From: Nitrosospira multiformis ATCC 25196
Lineage (GTDB): Bacteria > Pseudomonadota > Gammaproteobacteria > Burkholderiales > Nitrosomonadaceae
Assembly: GCF_000196355.1 (NCBI RefSeq)
Contig: NC_007614.1
Location: forward strand, 300,001 to 332,000
Reading direction: 5' to 3'
Length of the DNA stretch: 32,000 bases
This document shows, in pieces, positions 9,801 to 27,880 of this stretch (position 1 is the stretch's first letter; each line of letters begins with the position of its first letter). The position numbers and the translations under genes are program-made. Below the pieces are notes generated by a model. The model saw only the letters and a list, made by a program, of their open reading frames with translations, had not been told where the DNA came from and did not search any database.

Positions 9801-9930
9801 AAAAGTCACGTTCCAGTTTCCATATTCTTTGCATAAGTCATCTGGCGCGGCTTCCTATATGTTCCTGACTGGAGTTTCGCGTAAATCTTCCGTTAAGCCA
9901 TGCTGGACCTGACCGCACTGCAAAAAATTG

Positions 9931-11148
9931 ATGCGAATTCTGCATATCCTTGATCACTCCATTCCCCTGCACAGCGGCTACACTTTCCGAACGCTTTCGA
10001 TTCTGAATGAACAACGGAACCTGGGGTGGGAAACCTTTCATCTGACCGGATCGAAGCAGGAAAATTGCAGTGTGCTGGAAGAGTGCGTGGAAGGATGGCA
10101 TTTTTATCGTACCCCAGCCCCGTCAGGACTGAGGGCACGGCTGCCCGTCTTGAATCAGCTGGCTGTCATGGAGGCTCTTACCCATCGCCTGACTGAGGTG
10201 GTCAAGATTGTCGAACCGGATATCCTGCACGCGCATTCTCCAGTCCTGAACGCTTTGCCTGCCTTGCGCGTGGGGCGGAGATCGGGTATTCCTGTCGTCT
10301 ACGAAGTCCGGGCATTCTGGGAAGATGCGGCCGTAGATCACGGCACTCATCGCGAATGGGGCGCACGATATCGTCTCACCCGTGAGCTGGAGAGTTACGC
10401 GTTAAGGCATGTTGATGCAGTAACCACGATTTGTGAGGGGCTGCGCGGCGACATCCTCAAGCGGGGTATTCCGTCAGAAAAGGTAACTGTCATTCCCAAT
10501 GCGGTCAATCTCGAAACTTTCAGGATGAGCGAGCGCGGGGATTTGCAACTTGCAAACGCACTCGGGATGGAGGGCAAGGTGTTGCTCGGCTTCATCGGCT
10601 CGTTTTACGCGTATGAAGGATTGACTGTACTGCTCAACGCACTGCCCCGTATGTTAGCGGCAAATCCCGACATCCGCATTCTTCTGGTGGGAGGAGGGCC
10701 TCAGGAAGACGAATTAAAATCTCTTACAGCCCGGAGGGGTCTGCAAGGCAAGGTTATTTTCACGGGCCGCGTTCCCCATGATCAGGTTCGGCGCTATTAC
10801 AATCTGATCGATATTCTCGTTTATCCGAGATTGCCCATGCGCCTTACAGACCTGGTCACGCCCCTCAAGCCGCTGGAGGCCATGGCGCAAGGAAGGCTCG
10901 TTGCCGCTTCAGATGTAGGCGGACATCTCGAGCTCATCCAGGATGGAAAAACCGGAGTGCTTTTCAAGGCTGGCGATTCCGACGCCTTGGCAGCCCGGAT
11001 ATTGAATCTCATATCCAGCACCGATACCTGGGATACCCTTCGGGCCGGGGCGCGCGATTTTGTCGAAACCCAGCGCAACTGGGCTGGCAGCGTGGCCGGC
11101 TATAAGGAGATCTATCGCACTCTCCTTTCAAGGAAAGCATCGTCATGA
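9931..11148 (+). CDS. GT4 glycosyltransferase (resembles exosortase/PEP-CTERM-locus-associated subfamily)
   Basis: MRILHILDHSIPLHSGYTFR N-terminus. GT-B C-terminal motif PLKPLEAMAQGRLVAASDVGGHLELIQDGKTGVLF (E-x7-E). ATG at 9931 sits just after the TTG at 9928. Confidence 0.8.
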   Translation: MRILHILDHSIPLHSGYTFRTLSILNEQRNLGWETFHLTGSKQENCSVLEECVEGWHFYRTPAPSGLRARLPVLNQLAVMEALTHRLTEVVKIVEPDILHAHSPVLNALPALRVGRRSGIPVVYEVRAFWEDAAVDHGTHREWGARYRLTRELESYALRHVDAVTTICEGLRGDILKRGIPSEKVTVIPNAVNLETFRMSERGDLQLANALGMEGKVLLGFIGSFYAYEGLTVLLNALPRMLAANPDIRILLVGGGPQEDELKSLTARRGLQGKVIFTGRVPHDQVRRYYNLIDILVYPRLPMRLTDLVTPLKPLEAMAQGRLVAASDVGGHLELIQDGKTGVLFKAGDSDALAARILNLISSTDTWDTLRAGARDFVETQRNWAGSVAGYKEIYRTLLSRKASS

Positions 11149-13773: not shown

Positions 13774-15273
13774 ATGGATAAGCAGCAACATCAGTCCGAT
13801 ATTACCGCCAAGGTGTTATACGGCGCCCGCTGGTCGGCCATGCTCCGGGTGACCGGCCAAATGGTCAGCTGGCTCAGTACCATCATCGTCGTGCGCTTCA
13901 TCCGCCCGGAGGATTACGGACTCAATGCCATGTTGGAAGCGCCACTCGAACTCCTCATGCTACTCAGCACGTTTGGCCTCGACTTGGCCCTGGTCCGGTG
14001 GAAAACGATCGAGCAGGAGGAATTGCGCAGTGTCTTCGGCTCGCTGCTGATCATCAACGGACTCCTTTTTCTCGTCTATTTCTTTGGCGGCAGTCTGATG
14101 GCTGCTTATTTTGATGAACCTCGTCTTGAATCGCTGGCTCAGGTGCTGGCCTTCGTTTTTATCCTGGCACCGTTTCGGGTCATTCCCAACGCACTGCTGG
14201 ATCGTAATCTGAAATTCAAGCTGCGCGCTTTGGCCGAGTTTATTGCAAACATAAGCGCCGCTGTAGCGACACTGGTGCTTGCAATTCTCGGCTGGGGAGT
14301 CTGGGCCTTGGTATCGGGGGTGCTGATCAACCGGATTCTTCTCGCAATTATATTGATGGTCCTGCAGCCCTGGTTCATCATGCCCTCTTTGAACTTCCCG
14401 GCTGTACGCGCCATGATGGTCTTCGGCGGCGTTTTGTCCTTGGGCGGGGCAGTCGTGCTCGTCACTGACAAGCTTGCCACCCTGATTGCCGGTCCTGTTC
14501 TGGGCGCGGAATTACTCGGTATTTTTGCCGTTACCTTTCAGTTTGCGCTGTTGCCGCTCGCCAAGATAATGCCGGTAATTAATCCCATTATCTTTCCCGC
14601 ATTTTCCAAATTCCAGGATCAGCCCGGGGTGGCAACGTACTATTTGAGTAAATCTCTTGGTATTGTTTCGCTGGCCTTGTTTCCTGTCATGATAGGGCTG
14701 GCCTGCATCGCACAGGAATTCGTGGCTACGGTGCTGGGTAACAAATGGGCGGCAGTGGCTTTGCCGCTCGCATTATTGTCCACCGTGATGCCATTCAGGA
14801 TGACGACATCTTTTCTCCGGCCGGTACTGGCAAGCATGGGACGAGCCGATCTTTCGTTGAAGTCTGCTGTTTTCGCCTTGATTATCTTATTGCCGCTGAT
14901 ATTGGTGGGTGCTCATTACGGAGTGATGGGGCTGGTGATGGCCATGGTGGTGACCGAACTGATCGTCGTCTTTCTGACTATCGGCATGAGCAAGGCAGTT
15001 CTGCACACGTCCTTTACAGGGATTGCGCTGAGCCTTCGCCCCGCCATAGCCGCTTCTACAGTGATGGCGGCGTGCCTGATGGGCGCAAAAATAGCCTTGG
15101 GCGACGCATTTGGCAGTAGTGCCAACCTTATCACATTACTTATCGAAATCAGTTTTGGCGCACTTGTTTATTTCTTGACGTTGCGGATCTTCTACGGAAA
15201 ACTGCTGGATGACACCATACGGTTGTTTCTGGGCCGTAATGGGGGACTTGCTCATCTGCCAAATGAGTCGTGA
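13774..15273 (+). CDS. MOP/PST-family polysaccharide flippase (Wzx-like)
   Basis: 499 aa with about 12-14 hydrophobic segments. The N-terminal region AKVLYGARWSAMLRVTGQMVSWLSTIIVVRFIRPEDYGL is typical of polysaccharide biosynthesis (PST) transporters. Confidence 0.75.
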   Translation: MDKQQHQSDITAKVLYGARWSAMLRVTGQMVSWLSTIIVVRFIRPEDYGLNAMLEAPLELLMLLSTFGLDLALVRWKTIEQEELRSVFGSLLIINGLLFLVYFFGGSLMAAYFDEPRLESLAQVLAFVFILAPFRVIPNALLDRNLKFKLRALAEFIANISAAVATLVLAILGWGVWALVSGVLINRILLAIILMVLQPWFIMPSLNFPAVRAMMVFGGVLSLGGAVVLVTDKLATLIAGPVLGAELLGIFAVTFQFALLPLAKIMPVINPIIFPAFSKFQDQPGVATYYLSKSLGIVSLALFPVMIGLACIAQEFVATVLGNKWAAVALPLALLSTVMPFRMTTSFLRPVLASMGRADLSLKSAVFALIILLPLILVGAHYGVMGLVMAMVVTELIVVFLTIGMSKAVLHTSFTGIALSLRPAIAASTVMAACLMGAKIALGDAFGSSANLITLLIEISFGALVYFLTLRIFYGKLLDDTIRLFLGRNGGLAHLPNES

Positions 15274-15316: not shown

Positions 15317-17167
15317 TTATCTCCAATAGACCAGCAGATCTCCGATTTCCTTGGAATTTGCAAAGCCATTCCGGGTCAAGGCGTTCTGCACCCTGGGATC
15401 AGCGGCGGTGTTTTTAGCAATAACGACGGAACGAAGATTTTCATACTCGAGCAGAGTCTGAAATGCGGGTAAGCAATCCGGTTCATCGCCATTCACAAAT
15501 TCGGATGCGCAGATTCGCTGGTCGATTTCTGTACCAAGACCCCGTTCCCTAAACCATACCCTCTCTGCGTCAGTGAAAACACGCATTTGCGGATAGTTTC
15601 CGCTTAGCATGGTAATAATGCCGTTGACAGGCAGTGGGGCGAGCATGGGTCCCGGCGGTACAACTGCAATCACGTCTGACGCCGCCTTTTCGAACCGTGC
15701 AGGCAGTTTATAACGTGGCCATCCGAATTCGGTTCTCAAGTACAGGACAGAGGTGGTAAAGGGGACGAAATGAGCGATGAAAAGCAGGAAAACTGTGCCC
15801 GAGATGAAAGCAAGCCGGACTGTTCTGGAATATTTTTCCACGTATTCATACAGTCCGGCTCCGGTCAGACCCAACAGGAGTGGCAATGGATAGACATAAA
15901 ACACTCGCCAGTAAATGTTGGGGGTCGTCAGGTATTTGATAATGAAGGGGGAAACAATCGGATTCAGGAATAGGACAAGGGCGGCCCCAATCCACGCCAG
16001 CAGGAAGCGGCGGGTCTTGCCCGAAGTCATCAATAGTCCCAATACCGTTGCGCCAAGTAAGGCAAGCGGTGTCGCCGGGCCTGATTTTTCAAAAAAGAAC
16101 CCCGCATGCCCCAGAAAAGTGACAGGAAAATCTTCATTGACGGGACTGTTTGCACTTAAATCGGAGTGGAAGTTTAAAAACATCAGCAAGGTATAGAGGA
16201 CCAGATAACTCAAGCTGAATGCATACGTTATCGCGTTTTTCAGGAATTGTTTATAGCTCCCTTCGTTTGCCGCAGCACAGGCGATAACAACCGCTATGGT
16301 CAGGACTGGAAGAAGCGCCATGCTGGAACTCGTCGCGCCGACCATGGCGGTGGTAACCGCAAAAGTCAGCATCCAGTCGGATAGGGAGTAAGTTCGAAAG
16401 AAATTGATAGTGGCGGCCGCAAACAGGGGTATTCCTGTCGAAAGGAAAAAAACCTTTCCGATAAAAACATTGGGAAATGACCAGGTACCCGGTGTTCGAG
16501 GCGTTTCCCCGAGAAGAAGAATGATGGCAACCGCGAACAGAGCGCCCACCGCCGCCGGCTTTGGATCAACAAATTGAGCGACAAGATAAAACAGGGTTAA
16601 TGGAATGAGAAAGCCGAGCAGAGCGGGGGAAACCAGGAAAAAAGCCGACAGGTAAGGAATGTTCAGGAAGTATGCTAATACCCCGAGAGTGTATTCATAC
16701 GGAAGGGAAGTGGCGCCGAAATAGGAGGTGATGGGCTCGCTCCCTGCCTCCATAAAGTGAATTGCAAAACCCATCGGTAAATCCGGGTTTTGGAGATAGT
16801 AAACAGCGTTGGGAACGTAATAAAAAAGATCGAAGCTGACTTTTCCGGCCCCCGTGTGAAAGAAGCTGGAGATAAAAGCGCCGCCGAGACCCGTGAGGAT
16901 CAGAAACGATAAAGTTCCGAGATCCTGCAGAACCCTCTGCCCGTACTGGCGCCGAAAAAAATTCCATGCCAGCAGGGACATTCCGAGCGTTAGGAAAAGA
17001 CCCAGCCTCGCATATATCTTGAAAGTGATACCGGAAACCTGGGCAATATGGGTCAGGATCGTCATACTGGCGAGTATGGCGACCAGCCAGAACAGAACGG
17101 ATTTCACGACCAGGAAACTGAGGTACGATTCGGGGTTGTTTTTAGTGAAATTCAATATCATCTCCAC
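15317..17167 (-). CDS. Large polytopic membrane protein with C-terminal soluble domain (function unknown; candidate polymerase or GT-C-like enzyme)
   Basis: 616-aa ORF with roughly 13-15 hydrophobic segments by eye over ~480 aa, then a ~130-aa hydrophilic tail (RTEFGWPRYKLP...LLVYWR). I recognise no catalytic motif. Confidence 0.6.
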   Translation of the reverse strand: MEMILNFTKNNPESYLSFLVVKSVLFWLVAILASMTILTHIAQVSGITFKIYARLGLFLTLGMSLLAWNFFRRQYGQRVLQDLGTLSFLILTGLGGAFISSFFHTGAGKVSFDLFYYVPNAVYYLQNPDLPMGFAIHFMEAGSEPITSYFGATSLPYEYTLGVLAYFLNIPYLSAFFLVSPALLGFLIPLTLFYLVAQFVDPKPAAVGALFAVAIILLLGETPRTPGTWSFPNVFIGKVFFLSTGIPLFAAATINFFRTYSLSDWMLTFAVTTAMVGATSSSMALLPVLTIAVVIACAAANEGSYKQFLKNAITYAFSLSYLVLYTLLMFLNFHSDLSANSPVNEDFPVTFLGHAGFFFEKSGPATPLALLGATVLGLLMTSGKTRRFLLAWIGAALVLFLNPIVSPFIIKYLTTPNIYWRVFYVYPLPLLLGLTGAGLYEYVEKYSRTVRLAFISGTVFLLFIAHFVPFTTSVLYLRTEFGWPRYKLPARFEKAASDVIAVVPPGPMLAPLPVNGIITMLSGNYPQMRVFTDAERVWFRERGLGTEIDQRICASEFVNGDEPDCLPAFQTLLEYENLRSVVIAKNTAADPRVQNALTRNGFANSKEIGDLLVYWR

Positions 17168-19144: not shown

Positions 19145-20185
19145 TCAATCAGGCGATGCTACTGGCGCATTCCTGTCTGCCGTCATATACAGAACCCGGG
19201 CATGACATTTTGCACTTTCTTCCCATGAGAAACCGAGCGCCCTGCGAAGACCCATTGCGGTGCGCGCTCGCCTTTCTTCCGGGTTTCGGTAAAGAATCTC
19301 CATTGCCTCCAACAACTCGCTTTCGTTGCGTGGATTGATGGTGCGAGCTGCTTCTCCGGCTATTTCGCGACAAGCGGAAACATTGGAGGTGATGACCGGA
19401 CAACCGCAGGCCATGGCCTCGAGAATGGGGAGGCCGAAACCTTCGTAGAGGGACGGAAAAATGAAAGCGAGAGCGTGACGGTAAAGGTGAACCAGTTCCT
19501 CGGTTGTAAGAAAGCCACTCAGTACCCGGATGCCCTCGATTTTTTCATAATTTCGCGCGCTTTCTTCCGGAAGCTTGAGTACAAGCTGAACGCGGCAATG
19601 GCGGCGGAGCTGTCGAAACGCCCGTACAATCGCACCTACGTTTTTGCGCGGCTCGTCGTTGGAAACATGGAAGAAGTAGGGTTCCGATTCTGTATCGGGG
19701 CCAGGTGTAAAGGCGTTGCCATCGACCCCGTGATGGCATACATGGATTCTGTCAGCAGGAACGCCGGTAAAGCGAATCGCCTCATCTTTCACAAATGCGG
19801 AAACAGCGATGATACTCCCCACTGCGGTCCGGACTTCCCGCCATCGCTCGCGCTTGTGTTTGGCATACTGTCCCGACATGATCAGACCTTTCAGAGTCCG
19901 AAAATACTCCCATCCGTTAAGTGAAAGGGGAGCAAAACCATGCACCGTCACCACCAGGGGGGGGAGAGGATGTTCCAGGAGAAAATCAGGGGGGGGATTG
20001 CCTCCCCCGGAACGGATATCCCACAGCACGTCCGCCGATTTCGGCAGATCTTTCCTGTCCTTGAAAGGAATGGTGGCTATATCTTGCTTCGGCAAATGTC
20101 TCCATACGTTCTCCGCATAAACCTTGAAGCTTTGGGGAATCTCCGGACCCTGATAGATGCCGACCCGGAGTGCGCTATCTTTCAT
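19145..20185 (-). CDS. GT4 glycosyltransferase (contains two C8 tracts)
   Basis: C-terminal FIFPSLYEGFGLPILEAMACGCPVITSNVSACREIAGEAA (E-x7-E). N-terminal domain carries the PPP and PLPPL segments encoded by homopolymers. Confidence 0.8.
   Translation of the reverse strand: MKDSALRVGIYQGPEIPQSFKVYAENVWRHLPKQDIATIPFKDRKDLPKSADVLWDIRSGGGNPPPDFLLEHPLPPLVVTVHGFAPLSLNGWEYFRTLKGLIMSGQYAKHKRERWREVRTAVGSIIAVSAFVKDEAIRFTGVPADRIHVCHHGVDGNAFTPGPDTESEPYFFHVSNDEPRKNVGAIVRAFRQLRRHCRVQLVLKLPEESARNYEKIEGIRVLSGFLTTEELVHLYRHALAFIFPSLYEGFGLPILEAMACGCPVITSNVSACREIAGEAARTINPRNESELLEAMEILYRNPEERRARTAMGLRRALGFSWEESAKCHARVLYMTADRNAPVASPD
19957..19964 (-). repeat. C8 homopolymer in GT4 coding strand (G8 on + strand)
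   Basis: Read directly: + strand cca-GGGGGGGG-agagga. Coding strand is ctC CCC CCC Ctg, encoding L-P-P-L. Confidence 0.9.
19989..19996 (-). repeat. C8 homopolymer in GT4 coding strand (G8 on + strand)
   Basis: Read directly: + strand atca-GGGGGGGG-attg. Coding strand is aat CCC CCC CCt, encoding N-P-P-P (residues 63-66). Confidence 0.9.
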
Positions 20186-20635
20186 AAACTTTGCCAGGAT
20201 ATTTCATCGTTAAGTGGACGTGACCAACTCCTGCCACGAATGGCAACTGCTTCACAAGCATATATGCAAGCCTCCATTGCCTTCCGCAGAAATGACACAG
20301 GTAGCCTCAGATATTATCTCATCGGCAGAAACGGCAAATCCATTTTTGCCGGAGGGCCTGAGCATCCATTGCTGGAAAATCGATATATTCGTCCCGCTCA
20401 TTTCCAGATCAGTCAGAGGAGTTCCGTGCAATAGTCAATACCGCAGCCAGTCCTCGTTCCCGTAATTTTCCTGATACTGGATATACGATATACAAGAAGG
20501 AAGGAGGGCTCCCCGGACATCTAATAATTTATAATGATTATTGCGTCTGAGTTGACTGCCAAGATCCGATTTTAGCGTTTAAAGAGCGGTATCGAGGTTA
20601 AATCTCCCGGATATACTATTTTTAAAATCTTCCCC

Positions 20636-21577
20636 ATGGCAGCCTCCAAGCCAACTGTTTCCATCATTATTCCGACCTATAATTGCGAAGCTTATATCGC
20701 GGAAACCCTTGACAGCGTTCTCAGCCAGACATTCACGGATCTGGAATTAATTGTGGTTGACGATGGTTCCACTGATCGTACACGGGAAATCGTCACTTCA
20801 TATGGGACTCCTGTCCGGCTCCTATCGCAGTCCAATTCCGGAGTATGCGCAGCTCGCAACTACGGAATCCGGGAGGCGGCGGGAAGCTATGTCTGCCTCA
20901 TGGATCATGATGACTACTGGTTTCCCGAGAAGCTGGCGTTACAGCTGGAGCAGATGTTTTCGCATCCGGAGGTAGGTCTCGTCTACAGTACGTTTGTCTG
21001 GTGGCATCCCGATGGAGAGGGTGTGTTTCCCAAGCCGGAGAGCTTCAATATAGAAAAAATGCCGGGGGGGATAGACGAGGAATTTTCGGGATGGATATAT
21101 CATCTGCTTCTGCTCGATTGCTGGATTTTGACCAGCGCTGCATTGATACGCGCGGAGGTATTCGATAAATGCGGCGCTTACGATGAGTCTCTTCCCTATA
21201 GCGAAGACTGGGACCTCTGGCTGCGCATTTCCCGGGAATATCCGGTTATCAAGCTGAATAAAGGCCTTACACTATATCGCCAGCATCCTAAGCAAGGAAA
21301 TCGCCTCACCAGAGAGATCGACTATCGGACCGTGCTGCTGCGAGATGCCGCTGAGAAATGGGGGTTATGCAGCCGCGATGGTCGATGCATTTCTAGACAG
21401 CAGTTCATGCAAAACATCGCCCGCTACCAGATGGAATTTGGACTGAAACATCTTGCATCCAACAACTTGAAGCCCGCCATGCACGCCTTATGGAAGGCTT
21501 GGCTGAGCCATCCCGCCAATCTCAAAACCCTTGCCTATGTCCCTGCCGGCCTCCTCGGATGGCGGCCGAAGTGGTGA
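20636..21577 (+). CDS. GT2 glycosyltransferase
   Basis: VSIIIPTYNCEAYIAETLDSVLSQTF, LIVVDDGSTDRT, LMDHDD (DxD) and SEDWDLWLR are classic GT-A family 2 motifs. Confidence 0.85.
   Translation: MAASKPTVSIIIPTYNCEAYIAETLDSVLSQTFTDLELIVVDDGSTDRTREIVTSYGTPVRLLSQSNSGVCAARNYGIREAAGSYVCLMDHDDYWFPEKLALQLEQMFSHPEVGLVYSTFVWWHPDGEGVFPKPESFNIEKMPGGIDEEFSGWIYHLLLLDCWILTSAALIRAEVFDKCGAYDESLPYSEDWDLWLRISREYPVIKLNKGLTLYRQHPKQGNRLTREIDYRTVLLRDAAEKWGLCSRDGRCISRQQFMQNIARYQMEFGLKHLASNNLKPAMHALWKAWLSHPANLKTLAYVPAGLLGWRPKW
21064..21070 (+). repeat. G7 homopolymer inside GT2 CDS
   Basis: Read directly: atg ccG GGG GGG ata (M-P-G-G-I). Confidence 0.9.
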
Positions 21578-21580
21578 GGG

Positions 21581-22600
21581 TCAGTACTTGCGTAATATTT
21601 TTTCGATCAACCAGAAAGGTCTGGCCAGCAACCAGCTCAATGATCGGTAAATCCGGAAAAATTTGATCCGATAGTCGGCATGCTCCTGGTTGAGGTAACG
21701 GATCTGCTCAATCAGCTCCGGATTCCATTTTTTCTGGTAGGAGGCGAAATCCGCGGCGACGCTGTCAATCCGCTCATCCAGATTCCCGTTATGAGAGCCA
21801 CCGCTTTCAGCAGCTTTTTCACTGAGGGCGCTGTACAGTTCATGAGCCATCCCTTCAAGTCCCTGGTATCGTGTTGCTCCGGCATCCGTTTTATCGGCTT
21901 TATGATGACGGAGATCAGGAGAAACAAACCTTCCGATTTTCTCGTTTGCCTGGTTGACGGAAACAGGGAAGACAATACCGGTTTCCCGTTCTATTGTTTG
22001 CAGTACCCTGACCGGATCAGTCACCACCTGATCGAAGTCGATGAAAATGCGGGATTGTCCTCTTGAATGGGATTCAGCGGATAACGTATGATTCAGCCAC
22101 AAGACCAAGGCCTTTTCCCGTGAAAACCGGTCGCGTTTTTGCAAGGAGGCGATTACTTCGAAAGGGTTCCGGTTCATGGAAATAAAAACAGGCCTGATCC
22201 CGCGCGCCTTAAATATGGGCATCCACAGGGGCAGCAATCGGCACATTCGCGGATCCTTCAACGCCCAGACAGGGGCTTCCGAAAAATCACGCTTCACAAG
22301 GCTTTGAAGGCGGGCCACATACGGCTGAACCGCCTCGTCTTCCCACCACTTGTCCTTCAGAGGCAACAAGTCATCCCATTGCGAACGCAGGTGCAGAAGC
22401 AGTTCGTCATGCGTGTCGACGATATCCTCGTGCTCCCAGAAGCCTTTTTCGTTTACGCCTTTTTGAGGGGCGTATAGGCTGCGCCCCATCCTGACCCCGA
22501 CCTGACCCAGGAGTCCCGTTAACAATGATGTGCCGCTACGGTGCATTCCCAGGATGATCAATGCAGTATTATCTTTCACTCGATCTCCCCTTGTTTTCAT
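21581..22600 (-). CDS. Sulfotransferase-family protein (PAPS-dependent)
   Basis: N-terminal IILGMHRSGTSLL resembles the 5'-phosphosulfate-binding P-loop. LKDPRMCRLLPLW and the NRNPFEVIAS region are typical of bacterial sulfotransferase domains. ATG at 22600 (AGGAA upstream) preferred over the TTG at 22672. Confidence 0.7.
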   Translation of the reverse strand: MKTRGDRVKDNTALIILGMHRSGTSLLTGLLGQVGVRMGRSLYAPQKGVNEKGFWEHEDIVDTHDELLLHLRSQWDDLLPLKDKWWEDEAVQPYVARLQSLVKRDFSEAPVWALKDPRMCRLLPLWMPIFKARGIRPVFISMNRNPFEVIASLQKRDRFSREKALVLWLNHTLSAESHSRGQSRIFIDFDQVVTDPVRVLQTIERETGIVFPVSVNQANEKIGRFVSPDLRHHKADKTDAGATRYQGLEGMAHELYSALSEKAAESGGSHNGNLDERIDSVAADFASYQKKWNPELIEQIRYLNQEHADYRIKFFRIYRSLSWLLARPFWLIEKILRKY

Positions 22601-23092
22601 CGCTGTTCCTGTGAGGGTCCGGATATATTTGCGGCATGAAACGTTCGTTATCGAAACTATTTGAAACAGCAAACCCTTGCCTGATGAACGACCAATGAAC
22701 GTTAAACCTGGATTTTATGGGATTCCATGCCATGTTGTCGTTCTTCTTCGAAAGGTGGCCAGGACAAGGAAACGGGCAGGTAATGAAAGGGTTGAAAGCA
22801 ACCGATAATTCGAAGTTGTAGACCTAACGGCTTGCTGCCATAATTACTTGAACACACTCGTGTCCGCTTCATTTTTTTGCCGTTCTGTCGTAATCAGTTC
22901 AGAATGCGACCGAATACTCCAAAGACCTCATCAACAAAGGTTTCCTCTTATCCTGGATCTTGACAAACTGATCAGTGGGAAGTTACCGATTACGCTCTGC
23001 TCTTCTGTATCTTGTACTTCGGTCCAGATATAAATCCGGATGGCTGTCGATATAATTCGGTTTATCCAAAAATCGGAATCTGAGATCGGAAC

Positions 23093-23770
23093 ATGAATAC
23101 CAATACTGTATGGCACAACGCCACCATTACTCGGGCGCACCGGGAGAGGTTGAACGTGCACCGATCAGCGGTCCTTTGGTTTACAGGGCTTTCCGGTTCC
23201 GGCAAATCGACGTTGGCTCATGCGGTGGAGGAAAAGCTTTACCAGCTGGGCTGCCGCACGTTCGTACTTGACGGGGATAATGTGCGCCAGGGCTTATGCT
23301 CCGATCTGGGGTTTTCGGTGGAAGACCGTTCCGAGAATATTCGCCGCATAAGCGAGGCAGCGAGGCTTCTGGTCGAGTCGGGCGTGATTGCCATGACAGC
23401 TTTTATTTCACCTTTTCGGGCTGATCGGCAAAAGGCGCGCAGTATTTTTCCTCACGGGGATTTCATCGAGATTTTTTGCGAGGCCAGTCTCGCAGTATGC
23501 GAGCAGCGCGATGTGAAGGGACTTTATAAACGGGCTCGGACGGGTGAGGTCAAGGAATTCACCGGGATATCGTCGCCCTACGAGGCGCCTGCCACTCCCG
23601 AGCTGATCGTGCGGACAGGCGAGCTGGAGCTGGAGGATTGTGTTGCACAGGTAATCGAATTCATGGAGCGGCGGGACATTTTCAAGAGAAAGCCTCAGTT
23701 GCGAGGAAGCGCCAGTCATCATAATGCGAAGGACCTTTCCCATTTGTCCATCGATGTTGTCAAGGAATGA
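23093..23770 (+). CDS. cysC: Adenylyl-sulfate (APS) kinase
   Basis: [16 protein letters not shown] (Walker A), [48 protein letters not shown] and [11 protein letters not shown] are near-canonical CysC motifs. Confidence 0.9.
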
Positions 23771-23863
23771 CAATCGCCCTGGATAAAGCGGTCGCCGCAC
23801 TGCGGATAAAGGGTTTTTTCGTGCCTTTATGACAAAACAAAATTCAGAGGATGCGGTAAGAAC

Positions 23864-25204
23864 ATGAGGGATATCCTTGTTACCCTGATCGTCTTCGGAT
23901 GGCTGCCCTTCGTCTTTAAAAAGCCGTACATGGGGGCGTTGATGTGGGTGTGGATAAGCGTCATGAATCCGCATACCCAGGGATGGGGATTCGCCACCAC
24001 ATTTCCCTTTGCCGCGATTATTGCCGGAGTCACGATAACCAGCCTCTTGATTACCAAAGAACCAAAGAATCTCCCTCTAACCCCGGTTACCTGGACTTTC
24101 ATAATCTTCGTGCTCTGGATGAATCTGAGCACCGTATTTGCCATTTATCCCGACGAAACGTACATCCAGTGGAACAAGGTCATGAAGATCATGCTGATGA
24201 GTTTTGTGGTCATCATGCTGATCAGGACACAAAAGCAGATTCAACTCCTCATCTGGACAATAGTTATCTCGCTGGGATATTACGGCATCAAAGGGGGCGT
24301 TTTTACGCTGCTCGGAGGAGGTGTTGATCTCGTCATGGGACCCGAGAGCACCTTCATCGAGGGAAATAATGAGATCGCCCTGGCGCTCATCATGACCATT
24401 CCTCTCATGCATTATGTGCAGATGATTTCCCGGAAAACCTGGGTGAAGCATGCCATGACGGCGGCCATGCTGCTATCTGCCTTTGCCGCGCTGGGTTCTT
24501 ATTCACGGGGCGCTCTGCTGGCCATTGCGGCAATGGGAGGATTTCTCTGGCTCAAAAGTCAACATAAGGGCCGCATCGCTCTACTGGTTATTCTCGCCAT
24601 TCTCCCGGCGATTGCGTATATGCCGGAGCAGTGGATGCAAAGAATGGACAGCATCAATACTTATGAAGAGGACGCGTCGGTTCAGGGCCGTTTCAATGCC
24701 TGGTGGATGGCCTACAATCTGGCCAAGGACCGGCCGCTCACCGGGGGTGGTTTCGACATTATAAGTCCTGAGCTGTTTTTCGCTTACGCACCCAATCCCG
24801 AGGATATACATGCTGCCCACAGCATTTATTTTCAGGCGCTCGGTGAGCACGGTTTCGTGGGGCTGGGGCTTTACTTGCTGCTCGGGTGGCTCACCTGGCG
24901 AACCGGGTCATGGATCATACGCAACACCAGTAAGCTCGACGAGTACAGGTGGGCTTTCAATCTGGCGACGATGATTCAGGTATCGTTCATCGGTTTTGCT
25001 ACGGGAGGTGCTTTCCTTAGTCTTCTTTATTTTGACGTTCCCTACTATCTCATGGGGGCAATGGTTGCAACGCGTGTCTTGGTGGAAAAAGAACTCAAGC
25101 AAAAAACCATGTCGGCAATCGCTGCAAAAACCTCCGGTTCTTCGCGCCAGCTTGGACAGTTGAGTCCATCACAGTCGCAGCCGATAGCCGGGGATTCAAG
25201 CTAG
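23864..25204 (+). CDS. O-antigen ligase/Wzy_C-domain membrane protein (resembles exosortase-A-associated putative O-glycosylation ligase)
   Basis: 446 aa with about 10-12 hydrophobic segments. GSYSRGALLA and HAAHSIYFQALGEHGFVGL resemble the Wzy_C/O-antigen ligase loop. The N-terminus MRDILVTLIVFGWLPFVFKKPYMGALMWVWISVMNPH matches my recollection of the exosortase-locus subfamily. Confidence 0.7.
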   Translation: MRDILVTLIVFGWLPFVFKKPYMGALMWVWISVMNPHTQGWGFATTFPFAAIIAGVTITSLLITKEPKNLPLTPVTWTFIIFVLWMNLSTVFAIYPDETYIQWNKVMKIMLMSFVVIMLIRTQKQIQLLIWTIVISLGYYGIKGGVFTLLGGGVDLVMGPESTFIEGNNEIALALIMTIPLMHYVQMISRKTWVKHAMTAAMLLSAFAALGSYSRGALLAIAAMGGFLWLKSQHKGRIALLVILAILPAIAYMPEQWMQRMDSINTYEEDASVQGRFNAWWMAYNLAKDRPLTGGGFDIISPELFFAYAPNPEDIHAAHSIYFQALGEHGFVGLGLYLLLGWLTWRTGSWIIRNTSKLDEYRWAFNLATMIQVSFIGFATGGAFLSLLYFDVPYYLMGAMVATRVLVEKELKQKTMSAIAAKTSGSSRQLGQLSPSQSQPIAGDSS

Positions 25205-25265
25205 GATATAGGGGTCGAAGAGTTCATTGCCTTGTTTGCTTGCTGCTCGTGTCCGCTTTTCTTCC

Positions 25266-26288
25266 ATGAGAACTTCTGAATATGATCACGTGGACAATCT
25301 GGTAAATCAGGTGCCACTTTGGCCGCTGTTGACGAGCCGTGCGATGTTGCATCTGCTTTCCCCCGGGGGGCGGCGCGCCCGCCTGTCCATACTGATTTAT
25401 CATCGGGTGCTGCCCTGCCAGGATCCACTTTTTCCGGAGGAGAGTCATGCCCGGTCCTTCGATCAGCAGATGGAGCAGCTTGCGGCCTGTTTCAGGGTCA
25501 TATCTCTCGGGGAGGCGATTCGCGGCCTTCGTAATGGAACGCTGCCCCCACGTGCTGCCTGTGTCACTTTCGATGACGGTTATGCCGATAATGCGGAAAT
25601 CGCTTTGCCGATTCTGAAAAAACGCGGTATTCCTGCTACTTTTTTCGTGGCAACCGGTTTTCTCGACGGAGGCCGGATGTTCAACGATACCGTGATAGAA
25701 TTGATACGGGGTGCGCCGGGAAGCACCGTGGATCTTGATAGCCTGGGCTTGGGAAGGTTTCCGATCGGAACTGTTTCCGAGCGTCGTCAAACTATTCACC
25801 AGTTATTGGGCAAGCTCAAGTATCTGCCCTCCGCATTACGGCAATCGACCGTGGAGGCAATGTCGGCGTCAATTCCAGTCATGCTGCCTGACAATCTCAT
25901 GATGACCTCCGAGCAGGTCAGAATGATGCACAATGCAGGAATGGAAATAGGTGGGCATACCGCCAGTCATCCCATCCTGGCAAAAATGGAGAGCAGAGCA
26001 GCTTGTGCTGACATTGCCACCGGCAAAGAGATGCTGGAGGCCATTATTCGCGCTCCGGTGCGGTTTTTTGCCTACCCGAATGGGAAGCCGGGGAGAGACT
26101 ATTTGCCCGATCACGTCCGGATGGTAAAGAAGCTGGGGTTTGACGCGGCAGTCTCGACTGCCCATGGAGCAGCAAGAAAAGGAAGCGACCTCCATCAGCT
26201 CCCTCGGTTTACTCCCTGGGATAGGCGCCCGCTGCGATTCGCCCTTCTGATGGCGCGAAATATGCTGAAAACTGGAGAAACAGTTTAA
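25266..26288 (+). CDS. Polysaccharide deacetylase (NodB homology domain; PEP-CTERM-locus-like subfamily)
   Basis: CVTFDDGYADN (NodB motif 1), GGHTASHP (motif 2) and FFAYPNGKPGRDY (motif 3). ATG at 25266 preferred over the TTG at 25227. Confidence 0.8.
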   Translation: MRTSEYDHVDNLVNQVPLWPLLTSRAMLHLLSPGGRRARLSILIYHRVLPCQDPLFPEESHARSFDQQMEQLAACFRVISLGEAIRGLRNGTLPPRAACVTFDDGYADNAEIALPILKKRGIPATFFVATGFLDGGRMFNDTVIELIRGAPGSTVDLDSLGLGRFPIGTVSERRQTIHQLLGKLKYLPSALRQSTVEAMSASIPVMLPDNLMMTSEQVRMMHNAGMEIGGHTASHPILAKMESRAACADIATGKEMLEAIIRAPVRFFAYPNGKPGRDYLPDHVRMVKKLGFDAAVSTAHGAARKGSDLHQLPRFTPWDRRPLRFALLMARNMLKTGETV

Positions 26289-26438
26289 CGCCTGATCATA
26301 TAGGGATAGGGACTCCTGGTTTTTTCTTTATCCTCGAAGTTAATGCCGGCTTCCGCGCAACGGAAGGGAAGACCGGGAATTCCCTCTTCTTTGAGAAGTT
26401 CATATAAGTCAAGTTTCTTACGGCCATTTGCTCAATCT

Positions 26439-26909
26439 ATGGAAAGACCCATTACAGGATTTGATACCGATAGTGAGGGAGATCCAATCGCAATTCTGAC
26501 TTGCGGACACGCCCAGCACGTGCGGCATGATCCGCCGTTTATCAATCGCCCCTGGGTCACTTCCAAGCAGGGGCGCGAAGGCATGATAGGAAAGGCGCTT
26601 AACTGTGTCCGCTGCGATCAGTTCGAATTACCCGACTACTTTGTTCCCTACAAGCGGACGGCGGTCTTCACTGAGGAAACGGTACCGGCAGGATTGAGAA
26701 AAGACCACTCGACCAAAACCGGGGTATGGGGGAAGATCATCGTGGAAGCGGGAAAGCTTCGCTACCGGGTCGATACGTTGAACGTGGATACGGAATTGTC
26801 CGCAGAAACGGTTGGAGTGGTTGTGCCTGAGGTTCTCCACAATGTAGAACCTCAAGGCCCTGTCCGCTTTTTCGTCGAATTTTACCGAGCTCCGGATAAG
26901 GAGGCTTAA
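26439..26909 (+). CDS. DUF3565-like / DUF1971 (TehB-N/YeaR-like) two-domain protein
   Basis: N-terminal part LTCGHAQHVRHDPPFINRPWV...LNCVRC (Cys/His cluster). C-terminal part FTEETVPAGLRKDHSTKTGVWGKIIVEAGKLRY resembles the tellurite-resistance-related DUF1971 domain. Start uncertain: ATG at 26439 or ATG at 26343. Confidence 0.55.
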   Translation: MERPITGFDTDSEGDPIAILTCGHAQHVRHDPPFINRPWVTSKQGREGMIGKALNCVRCDQFELPDYFVPYKRTAVFTEETVPAGLRKDHSTKTGVWGKIIVEAGKLRYRVDTLNVDTELSAETVGVVVPEVLHNVEPQGPVRFFVEFYRAPDKEA

Positions 26910-27073
26910 AGAGCGTCTTTGGTACCTTCGTTGCATTCTTTGCTCAGGTATTCAAGATAGAGCATCAGATATGGCTCGGCTTCAGGGGCGGGCGCTCCCG
27001 CATAGGAGGAGGGAGTGAAAGCAAATCCGGCAGCAAGCGCAAGCGTGAAAATCCGGAAATAAATGTTTCTCAT
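26906..27073 (-). CDS. Small predicted secreted peptide (55 aa), not in the ORF track
   Basis: Hand translation: MRNIYFRIFTLALAAGFAFTPSSYAGAPAPEAEPYLMLYLEYLSKECNEGTKDAL. The sequence GGGAGGcagaATG provides an SD. Signal-peptide-like n/h regions with an S-Y-A|G cleavage-like site. The 3' end overlaps the convergent gene's stop by 4 nt. Confidence 0.35.
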   Translation of the reverse strand: MRNIYFRIFTLALAAGFAFTPSSYAGAPAPEAEPYLMLYLEYLSKECNEGTKDAL

Positions 27074-27277
27074 TCTGCCTCCCATCCCTGTCTGACCCTG
27101 GAAACTCTCGTTTCATGCATTCTCGTAATGAGTGTGGGAGGAAATGTAAATACCGGTCGAGGTTCAATGCGTTTCCACTTTTAACCGCATTCCACCTCTC
27201 GATGCTCGTATTCGGGTGAAGTCTTCACTATATTAAGTTTTTTGCAGAGTTTCCGTGAATGAAAAGAGGTCTTTCCA

Positions 27278-27306
27278 TTGACTGTTGTGCGCAAGCAGAT
27301 TAGAAT
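27278..27306 (+). promoter_or_regulatory. Candidate sigma70 promoter of the atp operon
   Basis: TTGACT (27278-27283), a 17-nt spacer, then TAGAAT (27301-27306), about 180 nt upstream of the atpI ATG. Confidence 0.45.
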
Positions 27307-27487
27307 CCGCGTGTTTTAAATAGGTCAAGCCGGATTTAATTATTCAGGAGGCCTGGAAGAAGGAAACAAGCGGTGCTGGCCAAGGAATTGAATTAAAATC
27401 AGGTCTTCCACGAACACACGTTCAACGAGCCAAGGTCACTCTCAACATCTGTTTTTGTGACTGGCGCTTTCCGACGAAGCTCAGCAA

Positions 27488-27880
27488 ATGCCCTGGATAC
27501 GAAACAAGCCGGTACGCGTTGTCATGCGTTGGCAACTGATTGTCACACTGGCGATGGTGCTAACGCTGGGTTTGTTATGGGGATTCCACGGCGCAGCCTC
27601 AGCTTTTCTGGGCGGTGTGGTCAGCATTGTTTCTGCAGCGGCGTTTTCTGCAATTGTCTCCAGGTATCGCGGCTCCACAGCGGGCGGCATATTGATCACG
27701 GCCCTGAAAGCAGAAGCGGTAAAGATAGTCCTCACAGTCGCATTGCTCTGGCTCGTGATGACGTTCTACAAGGATGTTGTTGCGATCGGATTTATCGGGA
27801 CCTTCATACTGACGGTTCTGATCTTCGGGCTGGCATTGTTCGTAACGGATGATGCAAAGGTTGCGCAAATAAAGCAATAA
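27488..27880 (+). CDS. atpI: ATP synthase protein I
   Basis: 130-aa hydrophobic protein with about 4 TM segments, directly upstream of atpB. This position and size are typical of AtpI. Confidence 0.7.
   Translation: MPWIRNKPVRVVMRWQLIVTLAMVLTLGLLWGFHGAASAFLGGVVSIVSAAAFSAIVSRYRGSTAGGILITALKAEAVKIVLTVALLWLVMTFYKDVVAIGFIGTFILTVLIFGLALFVTDDAKVAQIKQ

Follow-up and report, generated by a model that had tools for sequence, protein, structure and literature searches.

The locus examined in the current work carries a gene for a sulfotransferase-like protein that is transcribed divergently from cysC, encoding an APS kinase, in the midst of genes for glycan synthesis. This raises the question whether the PAPS generated by the kinase is consumed by the product of its neighbour, and whether a surface glycan is sulfated in this way. 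A previous interpretation of the DNA, made without database searches (named here the "sequence-only reading"), had proposed that cysC is dedicated to the neighbouring sulfotransferase and that the corresponding EPS or glycoconjugate is sulfated. The term "window" indicates the whole stretch of 32,000 nucleotides that was analyzed, corresponding to C1:300001-332000 of a genome of 3,234,309 bases (in pieces of 3,184,243, 18,871, 17,036 and 14,159 bases); positions given without a prefix are those of the window.

Sequence and conserved motifs of the putative sulfotransferase

The open reading frame of interest extends on the minus strand from an ATG at 22600 to a stop codon at 21581 and specifies 339 amino acids, in which the motifs GMHRSGTSLL (residues 18-27), KDPR (115-118) and LPLW (123-126) were retrieved exactly as previously described. 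The true start is probably a GTG at 22579, generating a protein of 332 residues, because an AGGGGAG Shine-Dalgarno sequence is located just 5' to this codon and because the closest orthologues are 332-333 residues long. In a Pfam search the frame matched PF13469 (Sulfotransfer_3) with a score of 29 bits (cut-off 27; E 1.5e-6), a margin of only 2 bits, and the same family was matched by 62 of 73 homologues at E<=0.01; the frame therefore scores as a sulfotransferase in the HMM comparison that the sequence-only reading had suggested. A search of NCBIfam retrieved no model covering the frame, and single-protein and profile searches of the PDB retrieved no significant relative by sequence. Named homologues with 67-70% identity come from Nitrosospira and Nitrosovibrio, and no experimentally characterised member of the GMHRSGTS/KDPR family was found.

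Alignment of the 73 homologues revealed MHRSGTS (19-25), N50, G53, E56, KDPR (115-118), R144 and S152 to be invariant. The first of these motifs had been designated a P-loop; the motif is real, and is more exactly described as the 5'-phosphosulfate-binding (5'-PSB) loop of sulfotransferases, HRSGTS, whose R21 is kept in all 73 sequences and which forms a strand-loop-helix in the predicted structure (strand 12-17, followed by helix 21-33). The 3'-phosphate-binding (3'-PB) motif corresponds to R144-x3-E148-x3-S152, with R144 and S152 present in 73/73 and E148 in 65/73 homologues. The combination of a PSB arginine with an RxxxD/ExxxS 3'-phosphate motif is considered to define the class of PAPS-dependent sulfotransferases (PMC11625862). 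The dN/dS ratio of the gene is 0.11-0.14 in comparison with three orthologues. Distant members of the GMHRSGTS/KDPR family (L238-L295) often represent the N-terminal part of open frames of 1000-2000 codons, which are probably fusions with glycosyltransferases.

Predicted structure of the putative sulfotransferase

The AlphaFold model of the protein (pLDDT 92.9, pTM 0.90) was subjected to an exhaustive structural search, in which ranks 1-14 were all occupied by sulfotransferases (Z 15.0-10.3), P-loop kinases being retrieved at Z <=10.2. The best match was TPST1 (Z 15.0, rmsd 4.2, 211 residues aligned), and the top matches obtained with Foldseek were likewise tyrosylprotein sulfotransferases, together with the sulfotransferase domain of an olefin synthase. 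The best structural matches (Z 14.5-15.0), namely human TPST1/2, tick TPST and the sulfotransferase domains of the OLS/CurM type, share 17-20% identity with the window protein over an alignment that covers the catalytic core only (approximately residues 7-262), and their acceptors are tyrosine or beta-hydroxy acyl groups, so that the shared fold leaves the acceptor undefined. The mycobacterial Stf0 matched the model at a Z of 10.1 only. Taken with the conserved residues, the model supports assignment of the 21581-22600 product as a sulfotransferase-fold enzyme of the PF13469/TPST-like type with intact PAPS motifs, for which PAPS turnover is predicted. By analogy with the catalytic residues of TPST, E56 could represent the catalytic base and K115 the lysine that stabilises the sulfate.

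C-terminal to the catalytic core, the model displays a short helical stalk (residues 273-319, approximately 47 residues) followed by a basic amphipathic helix (approximately 319-337) with a hydrophobic moment of 1.66-1.72 near residues 319-321. No transmembrane segment was found in the protein, which is probably held on the cytoplasmic face of the membrane by its amphipathic C-terminal helix.

The sole cysC of the genome and its relation to sulfate assimilation

The cysC gene (23093-23770, plus strand) is separated from the sulfotransferase gene by a divergent spacer of 492 nt, and is the first of a co-directional run composed of cysC, a gene for an O-ligase, a deacetylase gene and a DUF3565 gene. 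Its product of 225 residues is a stand-alone APS kinase, as had been stated: it matched TIGR00455 with 271.6 bits (cut-off 138.7), the models for bifunctional enzymes scored below their cut-off, and no fusion to CysN or Sat is present. It is also the only APS kinase of the genome, which answers a question posed by the sequence-only reading. The absence of an ATP sulfurylase from the window was borne out as well, cysD and cysN being absent from it; the only CysD-type and CysH-type matches of the genome are located at C1:1.32 Mb, and a genome-wide search for sat (PF01747) gave no match.

Considering that cysC would be a housekeeping gene in an organism that employs a PAPS reductase, the type of CysH is of particular relevance. 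The genes of sulfate assimilation form an operon, cysI-cysH-cysD-cysN, which is 1 Mb distant and does not contain cysC, and its CysH carries the arrangement CC-X81-CxxC (C113, C114, C196, C199) in addition to a C-terminal ECGLH. The CC/CxxC pair is the motif of bacterial APS reductases, yet the CysH of B. subtilis, with the same cysteine motif, also reduces PAPS (PMC1175818). By these motifs the CysH of the present genome is an APS-type reductase. Two further Nitrosospira genomes (G026 and G030, of 1-2 contigs) lack cysC, yet encode a CC/CxxC CysH, cysD and cysN. Because the reductase is of the APS type, the cys operon is distant and devoid of cysC, and these two genomes retain CysH, cysD and cysN in the absence of cysC, the kinase is probably dispensable for growth in the genus.

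No CysQ, which would remove the PAP left by sulfotransfer, scored above the TIGR01331 cut-off in the genome (best match 123.5 versus 228.8 bits); four matches to the inositol-monophosphatase family, at C1:414044-414721 and three other positions, are all below this cut-off. In the neighbouring genus (L035-L064, representing genus g3 and one g2 genome), the APS kinase is mostly fused to CysN in a protein of approximately 650 residues; Nitrosospira differs in having an unfused CysN and a separate cysC.

Genetic context of the locus

As the sequence-only reading had recognised, the two genes are embedded in a glycan locus, which comprises GT2 and GT4 transferases, methyltransferases, a flippase, an O-ligase and a deacetylase, and is followed by the atp operon. 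A gene overlooked in that reading is the one encoding a GT2 glycosyltransferase of 313 residues (20636-21577, plus strand), which is convergent with the sulfotransferase gene and separated from it by a gap of 3 nt. The flippase is a Wzx of the MOP type (13774-15273, plus strand). The O-ligase gene (23864-25204, plus strand), which begins 93 nt after cysC, matches TIGR03097 with 514.6 bits and thus specifies a putative exosortase A O-glycosylation ligase, and a further gene on the plus strand (9928-11148) specifies a glycosyltransferase of the PEP-CTERM/XrtA system (TIGR04063, 662 bits versus a cut-off of 442). The window therefore contains markers of an exosortase A/PEP-CTERM glycosylation locus, with xrtA situated elsewhere in the genome: its core, with a chain-length determinant, a tyrosine kinase, FemAB and an amidotransferase, is found at C1:2882000-2896000. 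A simple pattern retrieved 34 PEP-CTERM-like C-termini in the genome. The joint presence in the window of the sulfotransferase, cysC, the GT2 and GT4 transferases and Wzx corresponds to the content of a sulfated-polysaccharide cluster, cysDN not being local.

A membrane protein of 616 residues encoded at 15317-17167 on the minus strand has no match in Pfam or NCBIfam, and is present in some loci that contain the sulfotransferase, cysC and the GT2 gene (L088, L094) and absent from others (L083, L084, L090, L093). A second EPS system, of the EpsF/EpsH type, occupies C1:255000-268000, approximately 40 kb upstream of the window.

Co-distribution of the sulfotransferase, cysC and GT2 genes

Among the 28 good Nitrosospira genomes, defined as being at least 90% complete, the sulfotransferase and cysC are both present in 18, cysC alone in 2 and neither in 8, no genome having the sulfotransferase alone; the last group includes the unpublished genomes G073 and G081, without which the table becomes 18/0/2/6 (both, sulfotransferase only, cysC only, neither). 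The GT2 orthologue is present exactly where the sulfotransferase is (28/28), and co-occurs with it more tightly than cysC does. The unit is thus a trio consisting of sulfotransferase, cysC and convergent GT2, which is complete in 18/28 and entirely absent in 8/28 of these genomes. In all 24 genomes that encode a full-length sulfotransferase orthologue, cysC is adjacent and divergent. Where cysC occurs alone or as a second copy (G002, G034, G059, G063), it is located 2-3 kb from other PF13469 genes, and both genomes with cysC only have it 2-3 kb from another sulfotransferase. On a tree of atpA, joint absence is observed in G038, nested in the clade of the present genome (with full support), in G065, the sister of G034 (100/100), and in G049, beside G069 and G093, which indicates at least three separate events of joint absence of sulfotransferase and cysC. 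Because atpA is situated only 7 kb from the module, this tree may reflect the history of the locus and not that of the species.

Among genomes sampled evenly across the order Burkholderiales, an APS kinase domain is encoded by 25 of the 26 with a member of the sulfotransferase family versus 134 of the 374 without (one cysC-positive genome of this background, G571, being unpublished); these counts include kin and are thus not independent, so that Fisher p-values exaggerate the association, although the carriers span 17 genera. None of the conclusions rests on the unpublished genomes. The subfamily of the window protein is represented outside the genus by 18 loci (38-56% identity), of which 12 contain the same GT2 (at least 55% identity), 15 any adjacent GT2, 11 Wzx and 9 a TIGR03097-like O-ligase within 10 kb, many of the contigs being short. 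Since cysC is near the sulfotransferase in only 2/18 of these loci and in 7/77 distant loci, its adjacency is mostly a feature of Nitrosospira.

Strains without the trio keep the O-ligase, the deacetylase and the core GT4 genes and carry other modifiers at the corresponding place, for example a gene for an MBOAT acyltransferase or one resembling asparagine synthase, while strains with the trio differ widely across the remaining variable region, Wzx included. Most simply, the GT2 would add a sugar that is then sulfated by the sulfotransferase, irrespective of what else the repeat unit contains.

Two minor observations were made on individual loci. In G103 (L013:2603-3445) the GT2 orthologue is split by frameshifts while sulfotransferase and cysC are intact, and the same is seen in L095, apparently the same assembly; several genes of the contig are frameshifted, and those of the GT2 may represent an assembly error. 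In a Methylomonas locus (L202:6721-7581), a second sulfotransferase (PF00685/PF13469) is located two genes upstream of the orthologue, beside the O-ligase, and cysC is absent within 10 kb.

A proposed pathway and its alternatives

The explanation that we consider likely is that a sulfotransferase fed by CysC makes a sulfated surface glycan at this Wzx/exosortase-A locus. According to this proposal, APS would be made by the distant CysDN and for the most part reduced by the APS-type CysH for cysteine, while the CysC of the window would divert a part of it to PAPS for sulfotransfer only. The sulfotransferase, at the cytoplasmic face of the membrane, would then move sulfate from PAPS to a hydroxyl group of a lipid-linked oligosaccharide, the sugar that the coupled GT2 adds being the most likely site, after which Wzx would flip the unit and the exosortase-A system would polymerise it or ligate it into the sulfated surface glycan. 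Because the locus is an exosortase-A/PEP-CTERM O-ligase locus, the EPS named in the sequence-only reading is only one possible acceptor: a Wzy-polymerised EPS, an O-antigen or a glycan that is joined to PEP-CTERM proteins could each be sulfated. The narrower proposal that the GT2-coupled subfamily sulfates an oligosaccharide destined for PEP-CTERM surface proteins, to which it would be linked by the exosortase-A O-ligase, is tentative and, so specified, rather unlikely. Counted against the sulfated surface glycan are the narrow Pfam margin, the lack of a CysQ match and the rarity of cysC adjacency outside Nitrosospira.

That cysC feeds its neighbour is supported by its being the sole copy and by its joint gain and loss with the sulfotransferase, but the word "dedicated" goes too far, since elsewhere in the genome there is another sulfotransferase-like gene whose product may draw on the same PAPS. 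This gene, found by a motif scan at C1:144447-145307 on the minus strand (L075:6448-7308), encodes 286 residues with an SGRSGTS motif, has ESM Atlas neighbours at 0.96-0.99 that are mostly sulfotransferase clusters, and is divergent from a 399-residue cupin-like frame and a NodU-like carbamoyltransferase, in what appears to be a small-molecule cluster. Since 10 of its 12 carriers possess cysC (the two others being 65% and 78% complete, one with a copy containing stops), cysC may serve both genes as a shared source of PAPS, an arrangement that is compatible with the sulfated glycan and to which we assign slightly less than an even chance, given that the second candidate has no Pfam match and occurs in only 12 of 43 Nitrosospira genomes, and that cysC tracks the window's sulfotransferase far better and adjoins it. 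Genome-wide scans with PF13469, PF00685, PF09037 and PF03567 gave no matches and missed the window's own gene too, and therefore cannot show that other sulfotransferases are absent. The opposite view, that cysC has a housekeeping role in sulfate assimilation and is located here by chance, could draw on the dual activity of the B. subtilis CysH but is highly improbable in the light of G026 and G030, of the position of cysC outside the cys operon and of its joint loss with the sulfotransferase and GT2.

The remaining alternatives concern the role of the enzyme itself. O-antigen terminators share the architecture of a catalytic domain, a stalk and an amphipathic helix. The sulfate might accordingly be a cap at the non-reducing end by which the glycan is terminated or tagged, and the helical stalk might serve as a short ruler of the kind present in WbdD-type terminators; the distant relatives that form N-terminal domains of very long frames would fit such a role. 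This is nevertheless unlikely: a WbdD-type terminator was rejected as an assignment, since it involves a long coiled-coil ruler and Wzm/Wzt export with a cap-binding module, whereas the stalk comprises only some 47 residues, the flippase of the locus is Wzx, and the ORFs of the window include no recognisable Wzm/Wzt; moreover, a capped repeat unit would not obviously suit polymerisation by Wzy. More doubtful still is the view that the protein is a scaffold with a sulfotransferase fold, or transfers another group, and that the glycan is unsulfated. The capsule of E. coli K5 is unsulfated. Its kfiB has been called a putative sulfotransferase (PMC13171606), and a gene with a sulfotransferase domain lies in the O-antigen cluster of A. 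salmonicida, in whose O-antigen no sulfate was found (PMC4483657), both cases being likened to the window protein by description only. The latter case means that genes alone do not prove the product, yet the PAPS-contact motifs kept across the homologues (E148 being the exception, in 65/73) and the low dN/dS ratio argue against this view, and without use of PAPS it would be hard to explain why the gene so tightly accompanies an APS kinase that is dispensable otherwise.

Comparison with known systems

The presence of sulfotransferase and PAPS genes in a polysaccharide locus is already known as a characteristic sign of the biosynthesis of sulfated polysaccharides, as described for Vibrio sp. KMM 8419 (PMC11641403) and likewise seen in Cobetia marina KMM 1449 (PMC11766843). 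These are marine bacteria with ABC-exported capsules, a local cysDNC (C. marina additionally having a local cysQ and a permease) and a chemically proven product, whereas the Nitrosospira locus has cysC as its only local PAPS gene, employs Wzx for export and is of the exosortase-A type, and the system is known from its genes. Closer in export type is the synechan (xss) locus of Synechocystis sp. PCC 6803, a Wzx-type EPS locus, and the genetic model of the Wzx/Wzy type, whose two sulfotransferases, demonstrated by genetics and chemistry, have the lipid-linked repeat unit as their proposed substrate and for which cysC is unmentioned (PMC8205485); in Nitrosospira, a betaproteobacterial nitrifier rather than a cyanobacterium, one enzyme is coupled to a GT2. 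NodH, also of PF13469, has an RxG loop (PMC11625862). The extra PAPS supply of NodH/NodPQ, KpsS, LpsS and Stf0/CysC is likened to the present case by the logic of the systems and not by direct sequence comparison, and enzymes of the NodH, LpsS and Stf0 kind have other acceptors (chitooligosaccharide, LPS and trehalose). Rhizobial NodPQ, in the sulfation of Nod factors, constitutes an extra PAPS supply in an organism that assimilates sulfate via APS reductase. With the EPS-associated exosortase A/PEP-CTERM system (PMC1569441; TIGR03097, TIGR04063, TIGR03109) the window shares its O-ligase and glycosyltransferase markers, the xrtA core being apart from it at C1:2.88-2.90 Mb.

Few bacterial polysaccharide sulfotransferases are characterised (PMC11641403, PMC11625862). 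In the literature searched, nothing relevant was found on a Nitrosospira sulfotransferase, on a link between a sulfotransferase and the exosortase-A/PEP-CTERM system, or on a Nitrosospira glycan structure. The new elements are the nitrifier host, the fixed GT2 partner, the link to an exosortase-A O-ligase and the joint gain and loss with the sole cysC. If sulfate is present, ammonia oxidisers of soil and freshwater would join the short list of non-marine, non-cyanobacterial producers of sulfated glycans, and the PEP-CTERM floc system would gain a defined anionic modification. Were the PEP-CTERM proteins the final carriers, sulfated bacterial O-glycoproteins would be expected in ammonia oxidisers and related biofilm Proteobacteria, and some of the sulfated glycoconjugates reported in the EPS of wastewater sludge could be traced to a concrete genetic source. 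Close relatives with and without the trio occur naturally, which makes a comparative test possible without genetics.

The divergent spacer

Within the spacer (22601-23092), a sigma-54 consensus was rejected as it is unconserved (1/26 loci); no Rfam family was retrieved within 20000-27500, and a promoter and terminator scan of the locus performed at chance level. RNA runs yielded scattered contigs of 150-380 nt with a depth of 2-4 on the locus, which could represent DNA. A sigma70-like element, TTGTAG-17-CATAAT, is located at approximately 22817-22845 on the plus strand, approximately 250 nt 5' to cysC, with a second TATAAT approximately 42 nt 5' to the gene; the position of the former would imply a long leader for cysC and the O-ligase gene. 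This element is conserved as TTGT(A/G)-17 nt-CATAAT at 250-370 nt upstream of cysC, and its exact core, TTGCTGCCATAATT, is present in 13 orthologous spacers and in none of the loci without the trio.
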